A program made the translations under genes and the position numbers. A DNA stretch of 64,000 nt from Dictyostelium discoideum (Eukaryota): NCBI GenBank assembly GCA_000004695.1, contig CM000153.2, positions 4,864,001 through 4,928,000 on the forward strand. The letters are read 5' to 3'. This document shows, in pieces, positions 13,249-58,688 of this stretch; the first letter of the stretch is position 1, and each line of letters opens with the position of its first letter. Below the pieces are notes generated by a model, which saw nothing but the letters and a program-made list of their open reading frames with translations, made no database searches and had not been told where the DNA came from.

Positions 13249-14196
13249 CATGTTGTACAAAATAGACAATCAAGAAGTAATCAATATATTTTAATTAACA
13301 GTCATGATATGTATGATTTCGTATTCAATCCAATTTATGAAAAATTATTAATTGAATCACAAAAAGAAAAAGAAAAAGAAAATGATAATAATAATAATAA
13401 TACCAATAATAATACCAATAATAATAATAATAATAATATTGAAGAATTAAATTCAAATGAAAAATTAGAATTAGATTCAAAATATTTAATTGCAGTGGTA
13501 ATTCAATATATTAAATCATTAAGTTTTAATCATTGTACTGGTATATCGGATAAATTATATAATCTATTGATTAGTTTATTAATTGATAATAATATGTTTT
13601 CAAGATTACATCAATTCTTACAATATTATGTAATCACTGATTCATTATCAATAGCTTATAAACTTTTATCAATTGGTGAACAATATCCACCAGTACTTCA
13701 ATTGTCATTGGATATGTTTAAGAGATTATCAATGCCAAATATTATCATCGAAACTTTATTAGAGAGAGGTCAAGTTATTCAAGCAATTCGTTTATTACGT
13801 TCAACAAAGGAAACTAATGAACAAGCTTATCAAGAGTTGTTGACCCCAACTTATCCAATTCAATTCTTGGCTAGTTCTTCAAATCAGTCCAATGATACTC
13901 TATTCTTTTCAGTGTTTAAATTCTTTGAAACTAATAATTTAATTATACCTTCACATCCATCCTTTGATAAGTATATAAAATTATTCATTGAAAAGTTTAC
14001 TGAAAAATCATTATCACCTCTATTATTAGATATTCTTTCAAATTTAAATAATAATAGTACTAGTGGTGGTGATATAACTCCAAAGAAAAATGTTGGTGGT
14101 AGTTTCTTAAATCAAAGTTTAAATAATTCTTCTCCAACTTTAAGATCTTCAAATTCTTTAAATAGTTCACCTAGACTTCAATATTCTAATAATTAA
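11042..14196 (+). CDS. Regulator of MON1-CCZ1 complex (RMC1 / Mic1 / C18orf8 homolog). Three exons: 11042-11275, 11379-11588, 11704-14196.
   Basis: TCKYKSSKATILGYYWTTKENILLVTNASLELY, GVLFLHSGGTSIQPYFFRTNSFDKLPKFNIEG and IHFVDNLIIVHSELNISIVYDLK resemble human RMC1. Donors are GTATGT at 11276 and GTAAGT at 11589. The exon-3 acceptor (AATAG at 11699-11703) was chosen because it preserves the frame and restores the RMC1-like 'VLFLHS…IQPYFF' segment. The nearer CAG at 11738-11740 breaks the frame. A long Asn/Ser/Thr-rich low-complexity insert follows. Confidence 0.65.
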
Positions 14197-14582
14197 TAAT
14201 TAATTATTTTAATTTTGGTTTTAAAAAAAAAAAAAAATTAAAAAAAAAAAAAAAAAAATTAAAAAACTCTGATCGATTTTATTTTACTCATCTCTAAAAT
14301 ATATAAAAATAAAAAAAATATAAAAAAATATATATATATATATATATAAAAATAAATAGTGTATATCTTTATAACTAAATTAATTTTTTTAGTCTTGGTA
14401 AAATAATTTTAATTTTTTATTATAAAAAAAAAAAAAAATCATTTGAAAAGTACATAAACTTGAATGATTTTTACAATAATAATATTAAAAAAAAAAAAAA
14501 AAAAAAAAGATATCTTATTTATATAACTAAATTAATTAATTTTATAATATTTGTAAATAATTATTTAAATAATTAAAATTTA

Positions 14583-15851
14583 TTATTTTTCAAATGATGA
14601 AGGTATTGGAAAAATTTCATTAAAAGTGATATCGAATAAATATTGAATTTCATCAGTCATTAATTCTATTCCATCATTTAAACATATTGAGTTTATAGTA
14701 AGTCTTAATTGATCAACTTTTTGAAATATTTGTTGAAAATTATCATTATTTAATTGAAGATATAATACATCGGATGTGGTTTTAATTGTACATTTTGAAA
14801 ATTTAATTGCAAATTGGTTATATAAATGTGCCATTTGGAAATCAGTTTTATTTCTAAAGAAATGTGAAGAGGTGATTTCTAAACCTGTGCCGAAATCTTC
14901 TTGCATTTTATACCATATCTTTCTATTGAAAACTTGAATTCCATGAGCTGGGAAATTTCTTTTATACTCTTGTCCATCTCCCCATATTATTGCCAATGCT
15001 CTATTTGTTAATAAAACTCCCATTGTATATTCATCAAATGATTTTGAATTTCCCGATTTTCCACCCAGCACGTCTTTATTAAAAAAAACAACTTGATTAA
15101 AATTTTCATCAAAATAATCACTTTGTTCAACTGGTCTACTTAAAATTATATCATCATTTAAATATAAAAAACAATTTGAAACTTCAATTGGTAAATTCCA
15201 AAAATTTGATTCAATTGAATTTGAATTAAATGATGGTAAATCTGATCTAATAATTTTAAAAAATAATGAAAAAAATAAATATAAAAATGAAAAAAAAAAA
15301 AAAAAATGAAAAATCTATTAATAATTATTCTTTGAAAAATGAAAAAATAAAAATTTAAAAATAAAAAAATTATAAATAATTTACTTTTTATGAAAATAAT
15401 CATCATGTGATATAAATCTAACATTTTCAGGATTTTCTATATTAAACCATGTCGGTATTTGATTTGCAGTAATTATAAAAATATTTTTAATCCATGGTGC
15501 ATATTGTCTAACACTTCTTAATGAATATTTTAATGTACCAATATCTCTAAAATTGGTTGTGGGTGGTGAATAACTAAAATTACCTATTCTTTGTATTTTT
15601 GATTCTTCATGTATTGGATCTGAGCCATTAACCCAAGTATAAACTAAATCTACATATTTACATTCTCTTGACATTATAACTTGTTTAATATTTCTTTCAT
15701 TTTCATTTAAACCAATAGGTTTTGATTTAAAATCATCATATATTTCTTTAGGAAAACTTCTATTACAAAATTTGAAAAAAATAATTAAATAAAAAATAAC
15801 AATTACCAATGTAAATATAATTGATTTTTTTTTATTTAAATTTTTTATCAT
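14583..15851 (-). CDS. Stealth-family / GlcNAc-1-phosphotransferase-like protein, paralog B. Two exons: 15851-15385 and 15246-14583.
   Basis: CR1-like VDLVYTWVNGSDP, CR2-like LKYSLRSVRQYAPWIKNIFIITANQIPTWF, CR3-like LYLNDDII, and a conserved C-terminal exon. Exon 1 ends with a GTAAAT donor after …FHKK (phase 2) and joins a TTAG acceptor at 15248-15247. The start is taken at MIKNLNKKK (15851), after an upstream poly-F/K artefact. Confidence 0.7.
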
Positions 15852-25608: not shown

Positions 25609-28600
25609 CTAATATTTAATAGAGGAAGAATTTGATAAATTTGGATTATTATCATGGAATTTTTTCAAAGCATGAGATAATTTCATATTTAATAACATGT
25701 TTACATTAGGATCATCGACTGGAATTACTTTAGATTTAACATCGCGATCTAATAAACCAAGATTTTGAGGTGGGTCAAATTCTAAAAGAACACCATCATC
25801 TACCATTTCATTTGATTTAATGAATTTGAAAGGAATTTGGAAGAGGAAAGAACTATGTAAGAAATTCTTTTTAGATTTTGATAAGATAATTCTATGATCA
25901 GAGATGATGATGGTACATTCTTGATTGATGATATGATGCCAAATGTAACTATCAGAAGCATGTTTACCTTTGTGAGCGGTTTTCAAAAGGAACCAACCTT
26001 CACTTTCAACTTCATCGAATGGACGTAAAACGTTATCATGAGAAAAGCATCTTGGAGGACGAACACGTTCTGCTTGACTTTGAAGATTTGTAGTGTTTTT
26101 AATACCTTCGGTTGTTTTAGTTGCTAAATCGATTACGGCGGTAGTTGGTTTAACTGCAACACCTACAACACCTTGAGCTAAACCTTTGGCAAAACCTGCG
26201 AAACCACCTTTCTTTGCACCTTCAACTGGTTTTGTAACGATACCTGTAATACCTTGAAGAATACCACGACCCAAACCAATACCACCCATTGCTAAACCTT
26301 CACCAACATGGGAAGGTTTACGAGCTTGATGTAATTTTCTTTCTTGAAGATATTTTTCATCAAATGAAAGAGTTGCAACACCAGTACCCAAAGTACCGGT
26401 TAACTTTGACAAAGTATTGAAAGTACCAAATACAGAGTTCTTTACAAAACTACTTGTACCTTTTGCTAAACCTTTAGTGAAGTCTGCTGGTGATTTAACT
26501 AAACCTTGAGCTGGCTCTACGAAAAAGTCATGAACACCAGTACCGAAATTTCTAAACAAACCAACAGGATTACCAAGGAAATCGACAGAACCTAAAATGT
26601 TATAAAATTGTCTGAGAGCTTGTTGAATGTATGATGTTTTAATCTTATCAATGATAGTTGATCTTGAAGTGAATGGATGTTCCATTAATAAACCTTGTAA
26701 TGTAATTGGTGCACGATCTAATCTTGTCAATGATAAACCTAAACCTTCAACCAATGATAAAATCTTATGATTGGATTTAATTAAACCATCATTTTGGAGA
26801 GCTAAAGTTAAATTGATCTTTATTGGATTCAAAACTAATAATGCGAAATAAACCATTTTAATTGTTGAAGAATCTGAAGTTGGTGGTTCAATTGAGACAG
26901 CATTATATAGTGTTGATGTTAAACTATCAAGACCACTACCACTTTGTCTCATTTGACTACTTGTCATTCCATTATTATTATTATTATTTGAAGCATTATT
27001 TCCACGACCAAATGATGGAATTGAATCAACGAAATCTAAAACTTCTTTAATCCAATGATCTTCGAGTTCAATTGTCATCTCTTGAATTAAAGTTGAAAAG
27101 TATCTAAAGTAATCAATATTATCAATGGTAGATTTAATGATAACAGCATGTAAAAAGTCTTTTCTATGTTCTTTATCTGGTGAAACTGTATGAATGAGTA
27201 CAGGGAAATCTGTTTTAATCAATTGATTATCAATTTGTAACTCTGCTAATTTAACCTCAACCGTATTTTCAATTGAACTTTGAGTTGCAATGATAAGGAA
27301 ATCTTTCATTGAAATGTAAGCCAATTCCTTTGGTGTCTTATCGATAATTGAACAACCAATACCAGAGCAACGAATATTGAAATGATATTCACTCTGTGAT
27401 TGTGATAAATTGACAGCTTTATTATCGGTCCAAGCTTTAATTGAACGGAATTTCTTTTCATTGGTAGAGAAGAGTAATACACGAGATGGACCATCGATTG
27501 TAATTGTAATGTAGAGATCAGTACGTTCATGTTGAAGTTTATAACCTTTAATCTTATTGACATTGATACGCTTTTTCAATGTTTTACCCTCTACAGCGAC
27601 AGAGAGAACATATTCTGCAGATGGTTCATCCCAACCATAGCAAAGCTTTTCTTTTGGTTCAATATAATCGATATTCTCTGGTGAATCACGTTGGAAGAAT
27701 GAGATTTTGAATTGAGTATCATTTTGAATGATATAAGGTGGACTTTCTTTACTTGAAAGTGGAATTCTAATGAAATGAGTACCTTGTTTCTCTTTGATAT
27801 TCACATGGAATAAGAGAGAATCGTGATCAGGACGTTCGGTATTTCTACTCTTTACAACGTAATCACTAATGGAATCAACAAAGAAACCACCTGACCAACG
27901 CCATTCTTGAGGATTCTTTTCATTGGTAATTGGTCTAATTGAAATCTTTTTATTTTCAACATTCTCTTCCCAATGGAATGGTTTATATTCACCAGGATCT
28001 AATCTTAGTTCACCTAGTAATCTAACAGGATTTGAAACACCTTTACCATTACTACCTGAACTACTACTCAAACCACTACCACTGAAATTGAGTGCCATCT
28101 TATCGATACCATCGATAGTACTAACACATTGAGCAACTAGAATTGGGAATGGTAAATCATTGCAAATTACATTCTTTGGTACAAAAGTGACGGTTTTAGA
28201 GAGACGGAATCTTTCATTTGGACAGAAATCAACTTTGTATGAGAGTTCATAAGTACGAGTTGGGTTTGTTAAAAAGATAGTATTTGGATTACCAACTGCA
28301 GAGATTGGGAATTTCTCACAGAAACTCTTATTCATTGGTTGTTCAGCTTGTAATGGAATACGAGCACGAATTGTGTTGTTACTATAGAGCACTGGTGGTC
28401 GTGGTAATTGATCTGGTAAATTGGGTGGTACCAATAGTACTTGATTATCGGATAACTTGACTTCAATTGGTAAGAGGGAATTATTGACTAACCAATATTG
28501 ACAATAAAATGATAGAGTACGAACGCCTTTAATCAATTCGGTACGTTCAATATCCAATGAAATTTCACGATTGTTTTGTTGAAGTTTGAATGTTTTTGTA

Positions 28601-31600
28601 AAAGTTGGAGAGGTTGCATCACCTGATACCAAGGTATGTTTAGTTTCTGGGAAATTCTCTAATTCACTTACGATCGCCACTAAATTTGAACCTGGTTGAT
28701 AGTAATGACAATCGATTTTCTCACCTGATCCCATGTTAACCTTATCAATGGTTGTACCTGGGATTGAGAGTTTAAATGGATATGGTAAAATGTTTTCAAT
28801 TTGAATGGGTGGGAAGAATTTAAAGGTATTATTGAAACGATCACAATTTCTATTGGCAATGGTTTTATGAACCAATGATACAAACATACCAACTTTATCC
28901 ACTGTTTGAAGTTTAAAGAGTTTACTATTTTCATGATCTGGTAATTTGTAAATATCGATTGGATCGGACCAATATGGTGAATTCTCTAACTTTATCCAAA
29001 ACTTGCAAAGATCCTTTGAGACTAAAATTGGTAAAGAGAATTTAGAATGTTTAGCGATTGAAAAGGGTGAACCATTCTCTTGACATTTCAATTCCAAATT
29101 TAATGATGTATTATTTTCAAATTGATCCATTGATTTAATGTAACAACATTTACTGCCATCAGGACGTAAACGTACTTCACAAGTGATGAATTCATTGGTT
29201 GAACCAATTCTATAGATTCTATAACCAACTGCATCCATTGATAGATTTGAAATCTTTGAGCCTTGAATAAATAATTCTATATTCAAATGTTCACCCATTG
29301 TTGCATCTCTACTCTTTGAAATTTTCATTGGTAATGATACTGGTTCCGATGATTCTGTCAATTGGAACATTTCACTATCAACCTTTGGAATATGATATTC
29401 TAATGTTACACCAGTTTGATTTGAAATCCAATGAGAATGGAATGAAATTTTACTATCATTCTTTTCACCACCTGGTAAATATTTATTTAAAACACTTGGT
29501 CCATTAAATGATTGAACTAAACCGCTACCACTGGTACTACTATTATTACTACCTGTTGAAGTTGTTAAATTTGATGCATTCAATGATGAACTTAAGTTTG
29601 CTGCATCCATTTGATCAATTTTCTCCACATGAATCATTGCACTACTAATAGTTTGAAGTAATGAATGTGAGACATTGATATTTAATAATTCACGAGTTGC
29701 CAAGAAACTACCTTTAATCTTACCGGTACGATTCTTTTTCAAATCGACAGAGAAACTCCAATCTTCAATAACTGGTTCAAATTTCATATTAGTTTCATTG
29801 AAATAATCACCTTTAATTGACATTGAAGCCTTTGATTCTAAATCTGTGCTCCAATTCATTGCACTTGCTTCAATATCTGCAAAGAATAATTCTATAATTG
29901 GTATATACATTTCTGGTGATTCATTAATAAATAAAACACTAACATTTGGACATGAGAATCTTAATTTTTCATTATTTGTAAATAATTCTTCATCTTTTTT
30001 ACCACTATTACTATTACCAGATGTTGAAGTTTGGAATGAATTTGTTGATTTATTTAATGATGGTAATGAAGTTGAACTTGAAGCCATATTATCAAATGAT
30101 AATTGTCTCTTCTTTTGTTGTTCTTGTTGTTTTTGTAGATTTGTTGTAATATTATTTAAAATCTTTAAGATTGCTTTTACATCATCATAAGAGAAGAAAA
30201 CTTTCATAGCGGTACAAGAGATACCAATATCTTGTTTCCACTCGGTTGAAGTTAAATTCTCTTTAATATATTTAATGGTGATCATTTCAATTGGTTTCAA
30301 AATTTGAATTGGTCTTGAACCTTGATTTTCAGATTCTGTTGAAGATGGTTTATAAATGTTAACTTTAGTATTTTCAATGACAACTGTAGCATTTTCAATA
30401 CCATGTGGATCTCTACGGAATTGTACACCAACACGAGTTTTCAACATTAAACATCTTGTAGTTGATAATGTTTCATCTTCAACCAATGTAACTGATGGTA
30501 CTAAAGTTGCTGTGAATGTAATGGTTGGTGATCTAAATATTTCTTTCTCTTCTTCATCTTCCATACCTGCTTCTTGTGGATATGATGATAATGAATTATT
30601 TGATATTGATGATGAAATTGTTTTAGATTCTTTACCACCAATTGATGAAGTTCTACTTCTATTTTGACCAATAATTGATTGTGATCTTACTTTTTGTTGT
30701 TGTTGTTGTTGAGATGGAATAAATGATGATGATGATGATTGTTGTTGTTGTTGTTGAAGATCATTATCATCTTTTTCAATTGATGGATCCATTAATGAAT
30801 TTAATTCACTTTCTAAACTTTCCAAATCTAAATCTAAATCAACATCCATATTATTTGTATCATGTTGTTCTGATAATGGTACCATAAAGAATTCAGAAAT
30901 CATTAAGAGAGGAGTTGGCGAAAGGAATAAACAAGTGTTATTAATATTGACATTAATATATTGATCACCCAAAAGATTATCACGAATATAACCAACTTGA
31001 AGGAATGGTGCAACTGATTCAGTGTTTACTTTATTCTCTAAGAGGTTCTTAAAGATATTGGTTGAATTTGAACGAGTATCAGAGAGTAAAATTGATTTCA
31101 TACTTAATTGAATGTTTGTTTTATTCTTATCGGTATTCTTTACATCGACATCAATGCCACGAACGATGAAATGAGCTATTTCACCTTGAGCATCCAATGA
31201 ACTAATCTTGAAACTAACATAGTCCAATACCAAATGAATACGTAATAAAACTTTACCCATTTTTTGAATAACCTCTTGTTCTGTGAAATATTGCATATCA
31301 TTAGAAGTAATACGACCCATTTCAAAAGGATCACCCATATTTGAAAGTTTTTTAATTTCTTGAACCTCTTTATTTGCAAGATCCAATTCTTTTTGTACAT
31401 TTTGACTTAAACCCAAAAAGAAACGATATTGATTTTCATCCAAATAGAAAGCGAAATGAGAAATTGATAAATCAATAGTTTGATCCTCAACTTCTGGATC
31501 AGTATTTGGTACCAAGAATTTTGAGATACCTAAATCAATTGTTAACTTCTCCAAGAAGTAACTTGATCTATTATCGGATAAAATGGTGATATTTGCATCT

Positions 31601-34600
31601 TGTAAATGAATTTTCATATTTTCCATTGGTGCCATTGTCTTATCATGATATTGCCAACCATTTGAAATAATGATTTTACCCAACTCCATAATTAAAGAAT
31701 TCTTTGATCTAGTTGCTTGTGGTATAACTAAAACTGGTGTTTCAACAACAATATCTAATTTCATCTTTGGTATATGTTTATTTGTATTTTGTTGAAGTGA
31801 TGTTAATAATTTTTTATTCTTTTCAAGATCTAATTCTCTTTCACTCTTTTCATGATTATCATCAGATCTTGGTGTTGATGTTGATGATGATGAAGATTGT
31901 TGTTCATTTAATTTTGAATCAATTGATTTTGATTTTTCAATTGATTTATTATTATTATTGCTATCATCTTGTTTTAAAATTGGATCTAACATACCACCTA
32001 AAAAATAATTTTGAAGATGAATTAAGAAACCAACATTTGCATTGAATAAGATTGATTTAACATTTGCATTAACTGAAGCATCATAACCTGCATAATTTGA
32101 TAGAGTCATTGAGAAAGTTTCATATTTAAAGTCTAACATATCACCAGATGTATTCTTTGGAATGATAATTTGTTTATAGTTTGAAATGGTTGGAGTTAAA
32201 TCATCCAAAATGATTGAACCCAATCTACCTTGAACCAACATACGATTATCTTTAAACATTGAAACATCGGTTGAAACATTATTAATTGTAAAGATACCCA
32301 ATAATTCATTATTATCTTGATTTAATGCTAAACCTAAACTATTGATATGAACACTAAATTTCATTGAAACAAATTCAGTTGGACCTTTCTTTTTTGGTAC
32401 ATGACGAACTGAACGAATGATAACTCTTCTTGTAGTGGTACCAGATGCAGTTTTACTTGAAACCACTTTTTCATCAGGACCAACTGGTTTACTATTACTA
32501 CCTGTACCTGTAATAATCTTTCTTGAAACGATTTGTGGTGATTGTTGATTTGGTGATTGTTGATTTGGTGATTGTTGATTTGGTGATGATAAGTGAGCAT
32601 TAGGTGAGGTTGCTGCTGTACCACCACCTTCAGATGAATTAATTGGTACCACTTTATTTCTACTTAATAGTCTTGGATAAGCTTTACTAATTTGATCAAT
32701 ATTTTCAGGATCTTTTTGTAATGATTTTGCTAATTTTAATAATTGATAAATGGTTGATGGATTAATAACCAAATAAAAAGAATGAATCTTTAAATCGATG
32801 GACATATCTATTTTATTAAATTCTGGTGAAGCTGTTTGAATTTGTTTGAAATGCATTTGAACCAAACTATCCTTACCCAATGAACGATCTGCATGTGGTG
32901 GATTTGAAGTTGCCAATTTATTTAAAGTATTCTTTGTGAAACAATCTTCAATCTCTAATGATGATAGTTTAAATGTACCAGACATATCAAAAGTACGTTG
33001 TTGGAAACCAACATTAATATCAGAGAAAACCACTCTAATTAAATCGGATTGATTATTTGATAAAGTTAAACTAATTGATTTAATTTCAAATTCAGCTTCA
33101 ACTAATTTTGCATTCAATAGTAATTCAATGTTTTCTTTTGATTTCTTTAAATCATTTGATGAATTAACATCAACAGGTGCAGAAGAGGAAGAAAAAGAAT
33201 GTGGTGAAGTTGAAATTAATTTTGGTGAAACTGAAGAAGGTGAATTTGAATCATTAATTGGTGTTATGGTTGCTTTTGGTTTACCACTAGTAACTGGTAT
33301 ATCTGCAGTGATGGCATTTAAAATAGTTAACAATTGTTTGAATTTCTTATCAGATAAATAGAAATCGAATTTTGGTAATTCACCTTTAATTTTTAATTTT
33401 GTCATTGTTAGGTTATTTTGTTGAATTGATGAAAAGATTTTCAATTGAATATCGAATTTTTTAATGATTGAGTTATGATGTTTTAGAGGATGACCTTGTT
33501 TATCATTGACACCACCAATAGTTGGTGGTTTTTTATCACCAGTACTAATTGCAGACTTTAAATCGTCTGATAATAAAACTTGAATCGATTCAAATGATAC
33601 ATTAAACTTATCGTAGAGATCAATTTCACTAGTGCTACCTGCCAATTTATTGCTACCTTTAACGAATGCTGAAGTATCAGAACGTACGACCAATTTACCT
33701 AAATCTACAATTAAAATATTTGAACGTTCATTAATTACATCCTCTGGTATGAAAATGACTGGAGCATGAATGTTAACAGCTAAACCTAAAACCTTGTGAT
33801 TATCAATAGCATCTTGTAGTTGCATTTTCGCTTGTTCTTTAATGTCTTCTAAATGAGCACCAGCTCTATTGGAAATATTGGTAATATCTAAATTTGGGTC
33901 ATGGAAAAAGTCTACAACTTTCATAATTAATGGTTTGGTGACAATGATATTCAATGGATCCATATTTAACTCTACAGAGAGATCTAAATTTTTATCGGGT
34001 GGACGAGTATCAACAATGACACTAGCAAAGGTTCCAGTACCTTTGGTTGGTACACTTGCAATAATCTTTGGGAAATGAGTACGTTTAGTGAATTGATCGT
34101 AAACTTCAAACAAATGAATACCAGCCATCACTTTAATACCTTCATTACGTTGTTCGAATTTCAAAGATAAACCAGTGTACAATGCTTCAATGAAAACTTG
34201 ATTCGCCTCTACCAATTGAATTGCAAAACCTTTGATTTCAAAATTACCAATAATCTTTACCCAATCTGGTGGTTCTTCACTTGCGGAAACCACATCATTA
34301 TATTCAATGGTTTTATAGAGTTCATCACGTTCTTCACTTGATAATTGAATTTTTGGTGCAGCTTTTTCATCTTCATCCTTTTTAGTATTGAAAATATTTT
34401 GAAAGAAACCACGTTCTTGACGTTTTGAATCGAGAAATTGTTTACGTATCTTATTTTTCTCTGTCTCTTTTTTAATCTCTGCATAGGCCAATGATCTAAA
34501 GTAAACTATATCTTCAAATGATAAACGCTCTTCCAATTGATTCAATTGTTCCAATTCATGTTTATTCAATGGTTGTAACCAATCAACCTTTGGTATATTT

Positions 34601-35939
34601 CTTTTGAATAATGGAATGTATGCTAATCTTGCGCGACGTCTTTGTGCTATAAATTCCCATGATCTACTAAATCTCTTTTCTCTAATTTGTTCAACAATAA
34701 CTTGACCAACATATCTCCACCATAATTTTGGATTCTCTGATACCTTTACAATAGGTCTAAACTTTAAATACTTTATATCTCTTAAATATTCATTTGTAAA
34801 ATTTAATATACTTAAAATATTTTGATATTGACCTGATGATAATGTACATGTAATTTGTGACATTACACATTCAACCAATATTTTTGGTATTGATTTTTCA
34901 ATAATATCACTTTTATTAATATTTAACTATTAAATAAAATAAAATTAATAAAAAGTTAATATATAAATTATTATTATTTTAAATATTATTATTATTATTA
35001 TTATTATTAAAATATATTTATATTTACTTTTAATTGTGAAGAAATTGGTTTAATAATATATTTTGATAATAAAGAGAATGAAGCAGATGATGGAATTAAA
35101 CTTGTAAATGCTTTTGTAAATTCATCAAGTTTTAAATTTTGAAGTGAATCTGCATTATCATCAATATAAAAACCTAATGAATCCATTAATGCTAACTTTT
35201 TTATAAACTTTGATTTTGAACTATCAACAAATGATGGTATCCAAAATTCATCGGTTGATTGAATTGATAATTTATCTAATGTTATACCAAGTGCATATAA
35301 CTTTATTTTTTTTTTTTTTTTTTTTTTTTTTATTATTTTAGTAAAATAGAATTACTTTATTTTATTATTATTATTATTATTTTTTTTTTTTTTTTTTTTT
35401 TTACTTACTTTACCAATATCATTTTTATTTTCAAATCTAATATGAACTTTATTAATTACAATTTGTAAATTATCAATAATTTTTGTAACTAAACGATCAG
35501 TGAATGAATCTGATTTTTCGGATTGTAATGAAGAGATTTCATTCTCTTCAGCATCTTTAATTGATTTAATCCATTCATAATTTTCTAATTTCTTTTTCTT
35601 TAATTCTGCTTGTTTCTTTGCTTCTTCTTTTTCATCGTATTTATAGTTTTGTGTTTGTGGTACTGCCAATGCATAGATACAATCGATATTGATAATTACA
35701 GGTTTAGATTTTAAATCTTTCCAAGGTACTTTGAGATCTAATTTACCAAGAAAACCCTTCTTCACTGTAATGGGTAAATTTATTGGTAGATTCGCCAGAG
35801 CATCCTCTTTTAATTCTAAATTTTGAAGTTGTACACTACCTCCAAATATACCAATCTTTAATTGATCTTTATTTAAATTCTTTACATATTCACCAAGTAC
35901 TCTTGATAAAACATCTGATACTAATCCTTCAAATACCAT
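25609..35939 (-). CDS. VPS13 family bulk lipid-transfer protein. Three exons (35939-35409, 35300-35028, 34926-25609), about 3,373 aa.
   Basis: N-terminal chorein domain MVFEGLVSDVLSRVLGEYVKNLNKDQLKIGIFGGSVQLQNLELKEDAL…VPWKDLKSKPV…VHIRFEN, then LYALGITLDKLSIQSTDEFWIP (compare human GISLQNLSMQTTDQYW). GTAAGT and GTAAAT donors and AAAG/ATAG acceptors join in frame to the 9.3-kb exon, whose N-terminal M (TTG) is artefactual. The paralog (A-F) cannot be assigned. Confidence 0.85.
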
Positions 35940-46101: not shown

Positions 46102-47357
46102 TATTATTTTTATTTTTATGATAAAAAAATAGAATATGTAATCATATACATTGTAATCATAGATCAGCAGGATGTACATTTGAAGGTACAAAACAACAAT
46201 TAGAGGATCATTTACAAGGTTGTGTTTATGAAAGTATTAAAGATTATATACAGAGGAATGAAGAACAAATCAATACATTAAGATTACATTTAGAGGAGAA
46301 GACAACAGAGAATGATTTCTTGAAAAAGAGTATAGTACAATTGACAGCAGGTTTCAATCAGTTGGCAATGAAATTAGAAGCGAAAACCAATAAATTCGAG
46401 GGTACAATGAGACATATTCAAGCGAGTTTAGAGGCAACACAACATCAACTATCAGAGACAGTTTATGATTTAAATATAATTAAAAAGAATTCCAATTTGG
46501 AGAGTGTGGATATAGTGGATTTGAAAATACCACAATTGAAATGTAAAGGTACGTTCGTGGGTCATAATGGCCCCATTTGGTGCATGACTGTCACAAATGG
46601 TATGTTAATTAGTGGTAGTTCCGATATGAAGGTAAAGATATGGGATTTGGTGACCTTGAAATGTAAGCAAGTCCTATCGGGCCATGAGGGTATAGTCCAT
46701 ACGTTGGCTGTCATTGGCAATAGGTTGTTCTCGGGCTCCTCTGATCAAACCATTCGAGTTTGGGATTTGGAGACCTTTGAATGTCTATCAGTACTCAGGG
46801 ATGATAATACAGTGTGCGCTTTGGTTATTGCTGCTGGTTACCTTTTCTCAGGCTCATTTCAGCATATCAAAGTTTGGGATTTGGAAACATTTGAATGTGT
46901 TCAAACTTTAAAGGGTAATAGTCATTGGGTGCGTGCTCTGACCGTTAGTGGTGGTTATTTGTATAGTGGTGCTTATAATGTTGTCAGGGTTTGGGATTTG
47001 GCAAATTTCGAGTGTGTTCAAACAATTCCTGGTGGTAGTGGTAGTATATATTCTTTGGCCGTTTCAAATCGTAGATTATTGGCTGGAACTTATGAAAATA
47101 CTATTGTGGTTTGGAATTTAGATACTTTTGAAATCATTAACAAGTTGGAAGGTCACATTGGAGCTGTCTATACTTTGGCTGTTTCTGATAAAAAGTTTTA
47201 TAGTGGTTCTTATGATTCAACCATTAAAGTTTGGAATGATTCTTTAGTTTGTGTTCAAACTTTAAATAGGCATACATCTTCAGTTGAATCAATAGTTGTT
47301 AGTAGTGGTTGTGTTTTTTCTGGTTCTGCTGATAATTCTATAAAAGTTTGGAAATAA
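45097..47357 (+). CDS. TRAF7-like E3 ubiquitin ligase (RING finger, TRAF-type zinc fingers, coiled coil, 7 WD40 repeats). Two exons: 45097-45956 and 46133-47357.
   Basis: RING C-x2-…KCGHTFCFSC…CPIDK. TRAF-type zinc finger …CQPLKRFQLKQH…CNHRSAGCTFEGTKQQLEDHLQGC. Then a coiled coil and repeated …GHNGPIWCM…SGSSD.TIKVWDL… WD40 blades. The intron has a GTTTGT donor (phase 2, non-canonical and weak) and a TAG acceptor at 46130-46132, and contains a (TAA)n run. It is the only phase-compatible solution found. Confidence 0.65.
46015..46110. repeat. (TTA)n microsatellite inside the TRAF7-like intron
   Basis: Seen directly. Confidence 0.9.
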
Positions 47358-52137: not shown

Positions 52138-53744
52138 TTATCTTTTTATTAAATTAATTTTAAAAGGAAATGGTGATAATGTTGTTCCGCCTTCTCTAAT
52201 TTCTTCTTCAATTAATTTATTTGAAGAGAATTTAATTGATTTAAATAATATTAAATTTACAATCCATATTGACATTAATGCAAATTGAAAACCTAAACAA
52301 TTTCTAGGACCCATTCCAAATGTAATTAATTTCTTTTCTAATTGATTATTATTTAAAAATCTATCTGGATTAAATTGGAATGGGTTTTCCCAATCTTTGT
52401 CATTTAAATGACAAGAATAAACATTTTGAATAATTTGAGAACCACTTGGTATGAAATAACCATTTAATATAATATCTTTATTTGTTCTATGAGGTTGTGA
52501 TAATGGGGAAACTGTGAATCTTCTTTCAACTTCTTTTAAAACTGAATTATAATATGGTGTTTTACTTTTATTTGAAAATGTAATTTTATTATTTTCATTT
52601 AATATATAAAAATTTAAAATTTCATTAAATACTTTATTTTGAATATTTTCTCTATTTGTTAATGCAATAATTAAATGAATTGTAAAAAGTGACTAAAATT
52701 AAATTTAATTAAATATATTAAAAAAGTTAGTAAAAAAACCAATAATAATATATAATTTAAAAATAATTAAAAATTACATTTGTATCAGATCCAGCAATCA
52801 TTAAATCAGTTGTTGTTTTTATAACTTCATTCCAAGTTAATAGATTTGATTTAAATTTTAATAATAATAAATCAACAAAACATTCATTTATATTATTATT
52901 ATTATTATTATTATTTTTATTTAAAATTTCTAAACGTTTTTGAACTTGGTTTTCTATATATTCATATATATTTTCAAATATTTTTTGATGAATTTTTGTA
53001 GTTTTATTTATATAAAATTTATTTAAAATTGGAATATAATCTTGTGGAATTGGATGTGACCCCATTCTAAATATAGAATGTATATAATCAACAAGTTGAA
53101 TGACTTTTTCATCTTTATAATCATTATATCTAAAATTAAATAAAAATGATATAATTATATTTAAAAAACAAATTTTAATATTTAATGTTGGGTCTATTGA
53201 TTCATTTGATTTTATATGTTCATTGAAACTATCAATTAATTTATTTGTTTCATTGATTATCATTGGTTCATATTTTTTAATTTTTATATTTGGTGATAAT
53301 TCTTGAATTGAAATTGATTGTAATTTTTTCCATATTAATCCATTTGAATTTACAATATTTTCTGCTATAATTCAAAACAATTTTTAAATTAATAAAAAAA
53401 ATAAAATAAAATAAAATATATTGATACTTACAAGATTTAAATTTTTTAGTAATTTTATTATATCTTTCAATAAAAACTTCACCATTTTCAATGAATGCTT
53501 CTTTTAAAATATCAAATTCAGATAATACAACAGTATTTACAATACCATATTGTAATTGATAAATTTTACCATATTTTTTATAATAATTAAATAAAATATT
53601 TTGTGGTTGATTATTTAATAAAGAAATTAAATTCCCAATTACTGGCAAAGTAATTGGAGAAGGTGGTCTTTTCTTTTTAGGATTTAAATTTAAATTTAAA
53701 AAAGAAAAATAAAATAAAAAAACAACTATTACAATTATTATCAT
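52138..53744 (-). CDS. Cytochrome P450 monooxygenase. Three exons: 53744-53432, 53364-52778 and 52692-52138.
   Basis: N-terminal membrane anchor and PPSPITLPVIGNL, I-helix AGSDTN, ExxR (EVERRF), and heme-binding FGMGPRNCLG. GTAAGT/GTAATT donors and ATAG/TTAG acceptors are phase-consistent (1/0). About 484 aa. Confidence 0.85.
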
Positions 53745-54277
53745 TTTTTTTATTATTTTTTTTTTTTAATTTTTATTTTTATTTTTATTTTTATTTATTG
53801 TTTCTTAACAAATTCAAACTTTGTTTTTTTTAATATTTATTCAATTATTAATGAAGAGAAATAAAAAATTAAATAAATAAAAAAAATAATAAAAGATAAT
53901 CCCCAAAAAAAAAAAATTCTTTTCAAAAAAAAAAAAAAAATAAAAAAAAATGGCTGGTGTTTTTGTGTGTTTTTGTGTGTTTTTTTTCTTTTTTAAATAA
54001 TCAAAAAAAATTTTAAATTATTTAATTATTATTATTTTGTGGTTAATTTTTTTAAATTTTTTTTTTTTTCCTTAACACTATTTTTTAATTAATAAAAAAT
54101 AAAAAAAAAAACTTTTTTAAATTTTTTATTACTGTTCTAATTATTACTCATATAGTTTTATTGAATCTTTATTTGAAGATTATTCATAAAAAGTAACAAA
54201 TAAATAATAAAAAAAAATTACAAATAAGATAAAAAATATAATTTCAAATTAATTAAAATAATAAGTTAATTAAAAAA

Positions 54278-56365
54278 ATGGAATTTACAAACTATAAATA
54301 TTTTAACCAAGTTTTTGAATATATCACAAAAAACTATCAAAATAAAACAAATGATTTTTTAAAAAATTTAAAAAATTCAGAAAATGAAACATTTAATAAA
54401 TTACTAGTTTCAATAATTAGGGAAAAACTATTACCATTTATTAATGATGAAATAAATTTAAAAGAAAATCAAACAAATAATTTTAAATTTAATTGTGGTG
54501 ATAATAGTATTAAAGAAATTAGTTTTGAAATTGAAAAAGTTTTTGGATTTTCATTTTTTACATTTAAAAAACCAATATATTATAATTATTACACTGAAAG
54601 AAATCAAACAATTTTAAATTCAACATTAGAATTAATTGAAATTTTAAAACAGAATCCATCATTTAATGATATTGAAGTATTTAAAAGTGAAATTGTAAAT
54701 AGTATTACCAATATGGCATTAATTACAACACTATGTTCTGATGATTTAAATAAAATCAAAAAATTATCAATTGAAAATAATTGGAATTATTTATCAGATT
54801 ATGTCGATGCCCAATTTAAAAAAGATAAAACATTTGATAAATTTTTATTTTATGATCAAATTCATCTTAGTGGTCATCATATTCATCCAAGTTTTAAATT
54901 AAGGTTAGGTTTAAATCATAAACAAGTAATTCAATACTCTTATGAATTAAAAAAAGAAATACCAATTAGATTCATTGGTTTAAATAAATCAGTGGCAAGA
55001 TTTGATATGATCAATGATGGTGATGGTAATGGTGATGGTAATGGTGATGATAATCCAACAAGTTATTTTTTTAAATTATTTCCAAATTTAAAAGAATTAA
55101 TAATAAATTACTTTAAAGTAAATCAAGGATTAAATATTGATAATTATATTATTTATCCAATGTTTCCATATCAAATAACTGATACATTTCCAATACAATT
55201 TAAAAATGAAATTGAAAATAAAGAATTAATAATTATACCAGAGGAATTATATTCAATTAAATCATTTCAAACTTCATCATTAAGGAATTTAATACCAGTA
55301 ATTGAAAATAATAATAACCCACCACATATTAAATTTTCAGTACCAATTCAAACTACAAATTTCGTTAGATTTATGCCAAATGATTTTATACCAGTTGGTA
55401 CATCAGTTTCAAAAATTTTAAAAAGAATTAAAGAAATTGAATTTGAAAATTTTAATAATAAAATTGTATTTTTAAATGAAATTGGTGGAATTTATCATAA
55501 AAATGATACAGAATTAAAATATCAAAATTTTGCAATAATATGGAAAGAAAATACAAATTTATTTTTAAAATCAAATGATGATCATCCAATTAGTTCTTGT
55601 TCATTATTTAATCAATCACCAATTTGTGAATCTTCAAAATTACAAACAATTTTGGGTGAAATTATTAAAAAATATAATGAATTTAATATAAGTAGTAGTA
55701 GTAGTAGTACTATTATTTCCAATGATGATATTGATCATGATGGTTTTAAAAATTCAATTTTAAATTGGTTTAAATTATATTGTAAATTATTAATTGAACC
55801 AAGTTTAATTTTATTAACAAAGTATGGTATTTCATTAGAATCTCATTTACAAAATTCAGTTTATGTTTATGTTAAAGGTGAACCAAAATTATTAATTTTA
55901 AAAGATTGGTCTGGTATTGTAATTAAAATGGATAGAATTTTAAAACATAAGCAATTAATTGGTGAAAACTTAATAAACTCAATTCCAAAGTTAATTCAAT
56001 TATCAGATTTAGAATTTTATAAAATGTTTTCACATTCAATTTTACATAATCATATTTGTCAAATTATAATTGGAATTTGTAAAGAATTTCCAAATCATAT
56101 TACAGAGACTCAATTATGGTTTGAATGTTATCAAATAATGAAAAATACTTTTAATTTAATTAATAATCAAGATATTAGTAGTAATGGTAGTGGTGGTAGT
56201 GATAGTGGTAGTGGTGGTACTTTTAAGAATGATATTGAAAATGATGAAAATGAATTATTTAAAAAAGAATTAAAAGTTAAAGCACTTACTGGAATGAGAT
56301 TATTAACAAAAAATCAAATTTTATTACCATTTAATGTTAAAAATCCTTTAAATCAATTTATTTAA
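54278..56365 (+). CDS. IucA/IucC-like protein (NRPS-independent siderophore synthetase-like fold). Tentative.
   Basis: 695-aa single ORF. DQIHLSGHHIHPSFKLRLGL and IYPMFPYQ resemble remembered IucA/IucC motifs (GHP-x-HP…K-x-R-x-G; …HPWQ). Length and the absence of other recognisable domains fit. The assignment rests on memory of motifs only. Confidence 0.4.
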   Translation: MEFTNYKYFNQVFEYITKNYQNKTNDFLKNLKNSENETFNKLLVSIIREKLLPFINDEINLKENQTNNFKFNCGDNSIKEISFEIEKVFGFSFFTFKKPIYYNYYTERNQTILNSTLELIEILKQNPSFNDIEVFKSEIVNSITNMALITTLCSDDLNKIKKLSIENNWNYLSDYVDAQFKKDKTFDKFLFYDQIHLSGHHIHPSFKLRLGLNHKQVIQYSYELKKEIPIRFIGLNKSVARFDMINDGDGNGDGNGDDNPTSYFFKLFPNLKELIINYFKVNQGLNIDNYIIYPMFPYQITDTFPIQFKNEIENKELIIIPEELYSIKSFQTSSLRNLIPVIENNNNPPHIKFSVPIQTTNFVRFMPNDFIPVGTSVSKILKRIKEIEFENFNNKIVFLNEIGGIYHKNDTELKYQNFAIIWKENTNLFLKSNDDHPISSCSLFNQSPICESSKLQTILGEIIKKYNEFNISSSSSSTIISNDDIDHDGFKNSILNWFKLYCKLLIEPSLILLTKYGISLESHLQNSVYVYVKGEPKLLILKDWSGIVIKMDRILKHKQLIGENLINSIPKLIQLSDLEFYKMFSHSILHNHICQIIIGICKEFPNHITETQLWFECYQIMKNTFNLINNQDISSNGSGGSDSGSGGTFKNDIENDENELFKKELKVKALTGMRLLTKNQILLPFNVKNPLNQFI

Positions 56366-58307: not shown

Positions 58308-58688
58308 TTAAATTGATTTAATTGTTTGTTTTTGTTGTGGATGAGTTGGTTTTTGTTCAACCTTTTTCAAAACTTCATGAATGTATGGGATGACACCACC
58401 ACCAGCAATTGTTGTTGAAACTCTAATTAAATTATCTAATTCTTCATCAGTTTTAATTGCTAAAAGTAAATGACGTGGTGAAATTCTTCTTACATTGTGA
58501 TATTCTTTAGATTGAATTGAAACTTGTGAGATGGTTAATTCTAATACCTCTGATGCTAAATACTCTAAAATTGCTGCTAAATAAACTGACGATAGAATTG
58601 ATACTCTCTTTAATGGTACTTTATTCTTTAACATTCTATGAATTCTACCAACTGGGAACTATCATAATTTATTTATTTATTTATTTTT

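Follow-up and report, generated by a model that had tools for sequence, protein, structure and literature searches.

Type A' of the nonribosomal peptide synthetase (NRPS)-independent siderophore (NIS) synthetases includes the rhizoferrin synthetases FslA/FigA of Francisella, LbtA of Legionella, the NIS synthetase of R. pickettii and Rfs of Rhizopus delemar. In R. pickettii one NIS synthetase is enough to produce rhizoferrin from citrate and putrescine (PMC7857480), and in Rhizopus Rfs is sufficient by itself (PMC10700112); enzymes of this type can act singly, take primary metabolites as substrates and need neither a hydroxylase nor an acyltransferase linked to them (PMC7857480, PMC10700112), and Rfs demonstrates that the family can function in a eukaryote (PMC10700112). 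In this work we describe a gene of Dictyostelium discoideum, DDB_G0286821, which occupies positions 54278..56365 (+) of a stretch of 64,000 nucleotides (assembly GCA_000004695.1, contig CM000153.2, positions 4,864,001 to 4,928,000; hereinafter the window) and codes for a full-length NIS synthetase, probably cytosolic, whose nearest characterised relatives are of type A' (FslA/LbtA/Rfs and the staphyloferrin A enzymes SfaD/SfaB) and whose nearest solved structure is that of AsbB. The rhizoferrin synthetases have, like the amoeba protein, an IucA_IucC plus FhuF-like architecture and a citrate-type active-site pattern. Of the few NIS models in NCBIfam, that of FslA (NF041038) is the best for the amoeba protein (129.5 bits, residues 27-635) and for every representative of its clade; the LbtA-like protein P0268 of Legionella pneumophila scores 330 bits on this model and does not approach the amoeba protein more closely than Bacillaceae sequences do. 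Unlike the rhizoferrin systems, the amoeba gene has no conserved linked exporter or importer of the major facilitator superfamily (MFS).

The comparison can be extended to staphyloferrin A. In the sfa locus of Staphylococcus aureus, which was recovered with an amoeba-based profile, a synthetase of 596 aa has the racemase SfaC as its neighbour, and one of 652 aa is found on the other side of a shared promoter; this fits the published layout, and the two were taken as SfaB and SfaD, respectively. The amoeba protein matched SfaD at about 24% identity, and both Sfa enzymes share with it T360, E521, H523, Q525, N526 and D543. Some relatives (P0017 and its kin) are annotated as “D-ornithine--citrate ligase”, and the use of two enzymes, as with SfaD/SfaB, has a parallel in the gene pairs that most of the prokaryotic relatives and some dictyostelids possess. 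Unlike sfa, the window gene is a singleton, with neither a racemase (SfaC) nor an exporter (SfaA) linked to it. As regards AsbB, the petrobactin synthetase of Bacillus anthracis (PDB 3TO3), it is the best Foldseek match (E 4.6e-28, template modelling (TM) score 0.80) and the best sequence match in the PDB (5.6e-17 with the single protein, 349 bits with the clade profile), with 15% identity in the structural alignment; like the amoeba protein, it carries a Thr in the ATP-binding loop and a Glu before the catalytic His. AsbB condenses citryl-spermidine-type intermediates and belongs to the six-gene asb operon; neither such an operon nor a 3,4-dihydroxybenzoate pathway was found near the amoeba gene. 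The mechanistic reference is AcsD, the type A achromobactin synthetase (PDB 2W02/2W03/2X3J), which esterifies citrate with L-serine. Its Thr301-Asn302-x-x-Arg305 is reproduced by T360-N361-x-x-R364 of the amoeba protein, and its sequence similarity to the single amoeba protein is detectable in the C-terminal half only.

The presence of this family in Dictyostelium is not new. Sucgang et al. 2011, in a list of transfers carried over from the 2005 genome paper, reported “IucA_IucC, siderophore synthesis”, with unknown function in D. discoideum, as one of 16 candidates for transfer from bacteria (PMC3188802). The domain is thus among the published transfer candidates, as an earlier note on this DNA had stated, but the entry is DDB_G0294004, with “no model” in Dictyostelium purpureum (PMC3188802), and not DDB_G0286821, which does have a D. 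purpureum model (DICPUDRAFT_50166). Because of this difference, and because the close relative D. citrinum harbors a pair of genes of a second dictyostelid lineage (lineage 2, see below), the published entry is probably a lineage-2 paralogue. That the gene exists and that it probably came from bacteria was already known from its annotation and from published lists of horizontal gene transfer; what is added here is an apparently intact citrate-type active site, the purifying selection acting on the gene, the existence of at least two dictyostelid NIS lineages, the finding that the gene in the published table apparently belongs to the other lineage, and the fact that the absence of partner genes is expected for an enzyme of this type.

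Family, fold and active site of the DDB_G0286821 product

The gene is a complete open reading frame (ORF) of 695 codons plus a TAA stop, running from ATG to TAA exactly over 54278..56365 (+). At the base composition of the window (A 0.37, T 0.41; GC about 20% throughout), a random open frame of 695 codons has p ~6e-29, so that the ORF is not a product of chance. Its translation is identical over its full length (100%) to XP_637654.1/UniProt Q54LA7 of D. discoideum AX4, which is named “hypothetical protein” at NCBI and “uncharacterized protein” in UniProt, with matches to PF04183 and PF06276 already on record. No introns are present in D. discoideum or in four other group-4 species.

The attribution to the IucA/IucC-like enzymes, proposed in the earlier note, is borne out by both Pfam domains, whose scores exceed the curated cutoffs. 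The IucA_IucC domain (PF04183; residues 189-445, 54842..55612 (+)) is matched over profile positions 2-239 of 239 with an E-value of 4.4e-52 and 177.5 bits (cutoff 25), and the FhuF-like domain (PF06276; residues 497-622, 55766..56143 (+)) with an E-value of 3.7e-12 and 47.4 bits (cutoff 25.2). The latter is the usual C-terminal half of NIS synthetases and not a separate reductase; this two-part architecture is standard for the family and is the same in S. aureus SfaB and SfaD. An AlphaFold2 model built from a 100-sequence alignment reached a predicted local distance difference test score (pLDDT) of 92.9 and a predicted TM-score (pTM) of 0.93. Residues 1-185 (54278..54832 (+)) form an N-terminal “thumb” region of helices and a small beta-sheet, with a pLDDT of about 90-98, which aligns with the N-terminus of FslA (from model position 31 onward) and with that of AsbB. 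Since an N-terminal extension is absent with respect to these two proteins, a targeting or signal peptide does not appear evident. When the model was compared with the PDB by Foldseek, the best 50 matches were all NIS synthetases (AsbB, SbnC, AlcC, DesD, NcdF, DfoC, IucC, IucA and AcsD among them), with E-values down to 4.6e-28 and target-normalised TM-scores of 0.75-0.82. The predicted fold is thus the thumb-finger-palm fold of solved NIS synthetases. AcsD and DesD, the two structures that the earlier note had suggested for comparison, are both recovered, and neither of the outcomes that this note had named as refuting its proposal, a lack of significant domain matches or an unrelated fold, was obtained.

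Data on DesD allow the ATP/Mg pocket to be followed residue by residue, as the earlier note had recommended. In that enzyme the pocket positions conserved across NIS types are His153, Ser275, Arg277, Thr278, Lys291 and Arg303, together with Arg370, His440, Glu442 (Glu/Gln), Asn443 and Asp460 (PMC9356276). Nine of the 11 corresponding ATP/Mg/catalytic positions are identical in the amoeba protein (H200, S334, R336, K352, R364, H523, Q525, N526 and D543), and the remaining two hold conservative changes (N337 for Thr and K423 for Arg) that are common to all the orthologues of its lineage. The two motifs that the earlier note had recognised in a 695-aa intron-less ORF were both located. The first, GHHIHPSFKLRLG (residues 199-211, 54872..54910 (+)), contains H200, the adenine-stacking His equivalent to DesD His153 (PMC9356276); the second, YPMFPYQ (residues 293-299, 55154..55174 (+)), is, according to the alignment, a derived form of PVHPWQ (His to Phe, Trp to Tyr), a motif whose His and Trp show 100% conservation among the 93 aligned relatives from prokaryotes and metagenomes and also occur in the solved structures compared. 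In the phosphate-binding motif SSLRN (55274..55288 (+)), S334, R336 and N337 correspond to DesD Ser275, Arg277 and Thr278, from which their roles are taken (PMC9356276). In the ATP-binding loop K352...T360-N361-x-x-R364 (55331..55369 (+)), alignments to AsbB, DfoC and IucC place K352 (equivalent to DesD Lys291) and R364 on a conserved Lys and an invariant Arg of these enzymes. The catalytic motif YGISLESHLQN (55823..55855 (+)) was aligned residue by residue to AcsD (2w02), E521, H523, Q525 and N526 falling on Glu442, His444, Gln446 and Asn447; D543 (55904..55906 (+)) corresponds to the Mg2+-binding Asp464 of AcsD (Asp460 of DesD). D543 is invariant in the 100-sequence alignment, as are G199, H200, Q299, R336, K352, T360 and R364.

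As for the type of substrate, T360 and N361 correspond to Thr301 and Asn302, which contact citrate in AcsD, and R364 to Arg305, which is essential for adenylation; mutation of AcsD His444 and Arg305 has been reported to abolish function. The residues that discriminate the citrate-type AcsD (Thr301, Asn302 and Glu442) from DesD and SbnC, which use succinate and alpha-ketoglutarate, are Met/Leu, Gly and Met in the latter two (PMC9356276). All three citrate-contact positions that can be mapped in the amoeba protein (T360, N361 and E521) are of the citrate type, and the Thr and the Glu are shared by SfaD and SfaB, proven citrate ligases. On this comparison of residues, the enzyme is apparently a working one, catalytically intact and of the citrate-using kind.

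Three low-complexity inserts, all Asn/Gly/Asp- or Ser/Gly-rich, fall in loops of the model, which is of low confidence only in these places. The first, NDGDGNGDGNGDDN (residues 246-259, 55013..55054 (+)), is a host-type repeat in a surface loop, with a pLDDT below 50 at its Gly/Asp/Asn core (residues 250-255); it is missing in bacterial relatives and varies between orthologues. The second is a poly-Ser stretch (residues 472-477, 55691..55708 (+)), and the third, SSNGSGGSDSGSGG (residues 634-647, 56177..56218 (+)), has a pLDDT of about 60-65 and is likewise not found in bacterial relatives. Protein versions of 689, 694, 695 and 702 aa exist among D. discoideum strains, a variation presumably due to these Gly/Asp/Asn, poly-Ser and Ser/Gly inserts; the orthologues are 647-673 aa long.

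Relatives, origin and host residency

A profile search of 1.84 billion representative proteins retrieved 873 relatives (E<=1e-3). The highest-ranking matches below the orthologues are two-module proteins from compost metagenomes and the products of two adjacent genes of one species of the EukProt database, together with Cavenderia fasciculata DFA_12326 and DFA_12327, two D. citrinum proteins, metagenome proteins annotated as “D-ornithine--citrate ligase” and sequences of Bacillota, Patescibacteria and Chloroflexota. The relatives found in a scan of prokaryotic genomes belong to Bacillaceae (Gottfriedia, Anoxybacillus, Tumebacillus and Halobacillus), Rubrobacter, haloarchaea, a metagenome-assembled genome of Planctomycetales and Staphylococcus. 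Two adjacent NIS genes, often with overlapping stop and start codons, occur in 70 of the 78 prokaryotic loci that hold a relative, and in several metagenome relatives (P0012, P0013 and others) two complete modules are joined in one protein.

A neighbour-joining tree was constructed from 255 modules and 533 columns, with bootstrap analysis (200 replicates) on a 149-taxon subset, and Dayhoff-6 recoding was used against an attraction driven by AT-rich composition. All the eukaryotic sequences of the tree form one clade among the prokaryotic ones, with 98% bootstrap both with amino acids and with Dayhoff-6 classes, and all the named outgroups are bacteria or archaea; the EukProt species groups with the dictyostelids. 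When an assignment of the amoeba clade to the first-module (SfaD-like) or the second-module (SfaB-like) subfamily was attempted, the nearest group differed between the two codings, and the bootstrap analysis places the clade only outside both Bacillaceae module clades. The bacterial origin advanced in the earlier note is supported by the eukaryotic clade, which withstands the recoding. The note's description of the family as essentially prokaryotic needs a qualification, since fungal NIS synthetases are known, such as Rfs of Rhizopus and those of clusters in Basidiomycota (PMC10700112). A single ancient transfer from a prokaryote to dictyostelids is well supported but not proven, its direction and its single origin being what we infer from the clade. 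After the transfer, the gene would have duplicated into at least two lineages, reached a full compositional amelioration and acquired low-complexity loops of host type and, in some copies, introns.

Within the clade, lineage 1 (100% bootstrap) comprises the orthologues of the window gene, that is, those of D. cf. discoideum, D. dimigraforme, D. firmibasis, D. purpureum (DICPUDRAFT_50166) and Heterostelium album. The sequences of Cavenderia, of the EukProt species and of D. citrinum make up lineage 2, with a weak support (42-50%). Each of the pairs found in H. album, in the EukProt species and in D. citrinum is joined with 100% bootstrap; these pairs are species-specific duplications, arranged in tandem or head to head. 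In D. citrinum the lineage-2 genes form a head-to-head pair (L084 5861-12049; L086 1944-8753), and in C. fasciculata three NIS genes are clustered (L085 1-12091). In lineage 2, P0051 and P0018 have a Ser in place of the adenine-stacking His, and in P0055 the Thr-Asn/Ser of the ATP-binding loop is replaced by Asn-Leu, the paired partners of these copies having kept the residues; this suggests that the lineage-2 pairs may have been sub- or neo-functionalised. The two tandem copies of H. album lie at L002 10037-12148 (PPL_11284) and 13443-15544 (PPL_11285). PPL_11284 aligns to the window protein in one frame and may be intron-less, whereas PPL_11285 is interrupted, immediately ahead of the GH motif, by a canonical AT-rich GT..AG intron of about 74 nt. 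An apparent loss of the catalytic motif in these H. album paralogues was traced to an error of the gene models: the public models splice out a segment where, in both copies, the DNA encodes YGIALESHLQN in frame.

The gene is under purifying selection, with a ratio of nonsynonymous to synonymous substitution rates (dN/dS, Nei-Gojobori) of 0.19-0.33 among five group-4 sequences, and it is fully at home in its host genome. Its GC content is 19.9%, with 6.3% at third codon positions (GC3), which makes it the most AT-rich of the twelve window ORFs compared, and its synonymous codon usage correlates with that of the other window ORFs, pooled, with r=0.94. The adaptation of codon usage and of Asn-rich insertions to the host, remarked upon in the earlier note, is therefore real on both counts. 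Although the nearest homologues outside dictyostelids are prokaryotic, as would be expected of a bacterial contamination or an assembly artefact, these are excluded: in addition to composition and codon usage resembling those of neighbouring amoeba genes, the flanking genes are eukaryotic (P450, histone H2A-like, WD40, FNIP and homeodomain), the locus recurs in at least five species, in assemblies made independently and on contigs of megabase size, a paralogue carries a spliceosomal intron, and the protein itself holds host-type Asn/Ser/Gly repeats.

The proposed reaction and its alternatives

The analysis favors, as the probable function of the enzyme, an ATP-dependent adenylation of citrate or of a citryl-amine, followed by the formation of an amide with a polyamine or ornithine, which would give a polycarboxylate chelator. 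By analogy with AcsD and DesD, Mg-ATP would be bound between H200 and H523; a carboxylate of citrate, or of the citryl-amine, would then be adenylated and pyrophosphate released, with R364, K352, S334/R336, N526 and D543 as the residues that hold the phosphates and the metal. An amine, likely a di- or polyamine or ornithine, all of them primary metabolites, would attack the acyl-adenylate to form the amide, and one or two such condensations would yield a metal chelator of the rhizoferrin or staphyloferrin A type. Citrate as acyl donor, the identity of the amine and the role in chelation or in iron metabolism are all inferred. D. discoideum contains putrescine, spermidine and 1,3-diaminopropane. 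Because both substrates would be primary metabolites, neither a decarboxylase nor an N-hydroxylase would be needed as a partner, and since one NIS synthetase suffices for rhizoferrin (PMC7857480, PMC10700112), the lack of partner genes is expected and represents no obstacle.

Several points weigh against this proposal. On the side of the enzyme, its 129.5 bits on the FslA model compare with a cutoff of 1000, so that it is not an FslA orthologue or a member of that equivalog. AsbB and IucC, which act on citryl-amine intermediates and not on free citrate, also carry a Thr at the position of T360; therefore, the active-site pattern points to “citrate or a citryl intermediate” and not specifically to free citrate. 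K668 and R674 are conserved in the clade, and their match to the citrate contacts Lys563 and Arg576 of AcsD is insecure without a structural superposition. Moreover, the otherwise conserved His and Trp of PVHPWQ are replaced in the group-4 orthologues, by Phe/Tyr in D. discoideum and by Tyr/Phe in D. purpureum. On the side of the genome, the loci of the dictyostelids compared hold no conserved linked transporter or receptor gene, and a search of the available literature with both gene identifiers and for siderophores or rhizoferrin in dictyostelids gave nothing relevant beyond Sucgang et al. 2011. As for the origin, the prokaryotic sister group is supported by only 28-46%, the trees are neighbour-joining trees on saturated distances that leave out fungal NIS synthetases, and a scan of 185,579 prokaryotic genomes found relatives that are only 21-29% identical; because the closest named prokaryotes are this distant, the donor cannot be named.

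A different possibility, which we regard as unlikely although it is the strongest of the alternatives, is that the window gene codes for a second-step enzyme, which adenylates the citryl-amine released by a lineage-2 NIS pair located elsewhere in the genome, or else supplies that pair. The order of the reactions would be that of SfaB after SfaD, IucC after IucA and AsbB after AsbA, and the chelator would require two or three NIS enzymes. This idea is in agreement with the prevalence of adjacent NIS genes in the prokaryotic loci (70/78) and the existence of fused two-module proteins, with the top PDB match, AsbB, being a later-step enzyme, with the head-to-head lineage-2 pair that the close relative D. 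citrinum has besides lineage 1, with the three clustered copies of C. fasciculata, and with the different D. discoideum IucA_IucC gene in the list of Sucgang et al. However, enzymes of the rhizoferrin type perform both condensations alone (PMC7857480), the amoeba protein has no stable placement relative to the first- and second-module subfamilies, and the window gene is unlinked to lineage-2 genes, some of whose products have lost active-site residues (H200S in P0051 and P0018, T360N in P0055) and might be no ordinary partners.

Less probable still is that the enzyme is active but that its product is not an iron-scavenging siderophore, serving instead as an intracellular buffer or storage ligand for metals, as a way to deprive ingested bacteria of metal, or as a small developmental molecule assembled through an identical ligation of citrate to an amine. 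No exporter or importer is linked in a conserved manner, no signal peptide is evident from the N-terminal alignment, and the amoeba is a phagotroph that obtains iron from its prey; furthermore, other transferred genes of Dictyostelium have taken host-specific uses, such as IPT for discadenine (PMC3188802, Table 2). On the other hand, every characterised member of the family makes a siderophore or a siderophore precursor, and the chemistry proposed above would be the same in any role, so that this alternative concerns the role of the enzyme and not its mechanism. We find it very improbable, finally, that the protein is a catalytically impaired relic, or a pseudo-enzyme retained for a structural or binding role. 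The loss of the PVHPWQ His and Trp, the changes T337N and R423K in the phosphate pocket, the long low-complexity inserts and the bare “hypothetical” annotation might speak for a relic. Against it, nine of the 11 ATP/Mg/catalytic residues are identical and the other two conservative, dN/dS is 0.19-0.33, and the model is confident over the whole palm domain, the inserts lying in loops; the H. album orthologues retain the PVHPWQ His, which implies that its change is recent and tolerated.

A broader and more tentative idea can be put forward, to which we give somewhat less than an even chance, namely, that social amoebae produce a citrate-polyamine chelator of their own, similar to rhizoferrin or staphyloferrin, with a small NIS family acquired long ago, which would consist of this singleton and of a head-to-head pair located elsewhere in the genome; in D. 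citrinum such a pair has a lipocalin gene beside it. For Amoebozoa it would be the first description of an endogenous siderophore system, and this system could serve the acquisition of iron in soil or the competition for metals with ingested or symbiotic bacteria. An active enzyme would mean that a model phagocyte makes a bacterial-style metal chelator, and this would bear on the competition for iron between amoebae and the bacteria that they prey upon, farm or host, including the rhizoferrin makers Legionella and Francisella. Since D. discoideum is genetically tractable, the question is directly testable.

Neighbourhood of the gene

The genes surrounding DDB_G0286821 in the window are eukaryotic and code for a P450, a histone H2A-like protein, WD40, FNIP-repeat, RING and homeodomain proteins and an MFS transporter. 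Upstream, an intergenic spacer of 533 bp with 10.5% GC (53745..54277, from ORF positions and composition), the presumed promoter region, separates it from a divergent cytochrome P450 gene (PF00067, at least two exons; 52757..53744 (-), continuing leftwards). The MFS transporter gene (PF07690; 60314..63076 (+)) lies about 4 kb downstream and codes for a protein with a long low-complexity N-terminal extension; between it and the NIS gene there is a short H2A-like ORF (58308..58634 (-)), whose orthologues in related species match Histone_H2A_C. D. cf. discoideum, D. dimigraforme and D. firmibasis all share the order P450/NIS/low-complexity gene/H2A-like/MFS, and the D. purpureum locus has only the NIS gene in common with the window. 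In D. purpureum a GNAT acetyltransferase gene (L001 12218-12791) lies 244 bp downstream of the NIS orthologue, and no counterpart of it was found in the window.

Bacteria use MFS proteins for both the export and the import of rhizoferrin-type siderophores. The P450 and the MFS transporter were considered as pathway partners of the NIS synthetase, an idea that is not supported, their synteny being confined to the D. discoideum complex and absent in D. purpureum. No linked decarboxylase, flavin N-monooxygenase or acyltransferase was found at the locus, and no conserved transporter. The statement of the earlier note that no partner genes are adjacent thus holds in substance, with the qualification that a P450 and an MFS gene are nearby, in an association limited to the D. 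discoideum complex. There is, in other words, no evidence of a conserved biosynthetic cluster; clustering is typical of bacteria and is required neither of this enzyme family nor of eukaryotic genes.

Lipocalins include the siderophore-binding siderocalins. In D. citrinum a gene for a 181-aa lipocalin (PF00061/PF08212) lies 0.4-1.6 kb from the lineage-2 NIS pair; no lipocalin was seen within 10 kb of the C. fasciculata NIS cluster. One of the C. fasciculata NIS copies is contained in a 1576-aa model that also matches ComC_SSD and bears an “EGF-like” name, probably a merged model. A possible second NIS copy in the window, suggested by a weak tblastn match (E 0.007) at 46632..46955, turned out to be a WD40 protein. 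Elsewhere in the window, an ORF of 3089 aa (25609..34878 (-)) lies in a stretch of raised GC content (0.29-0.34 versus about 0.20 elsewhere).

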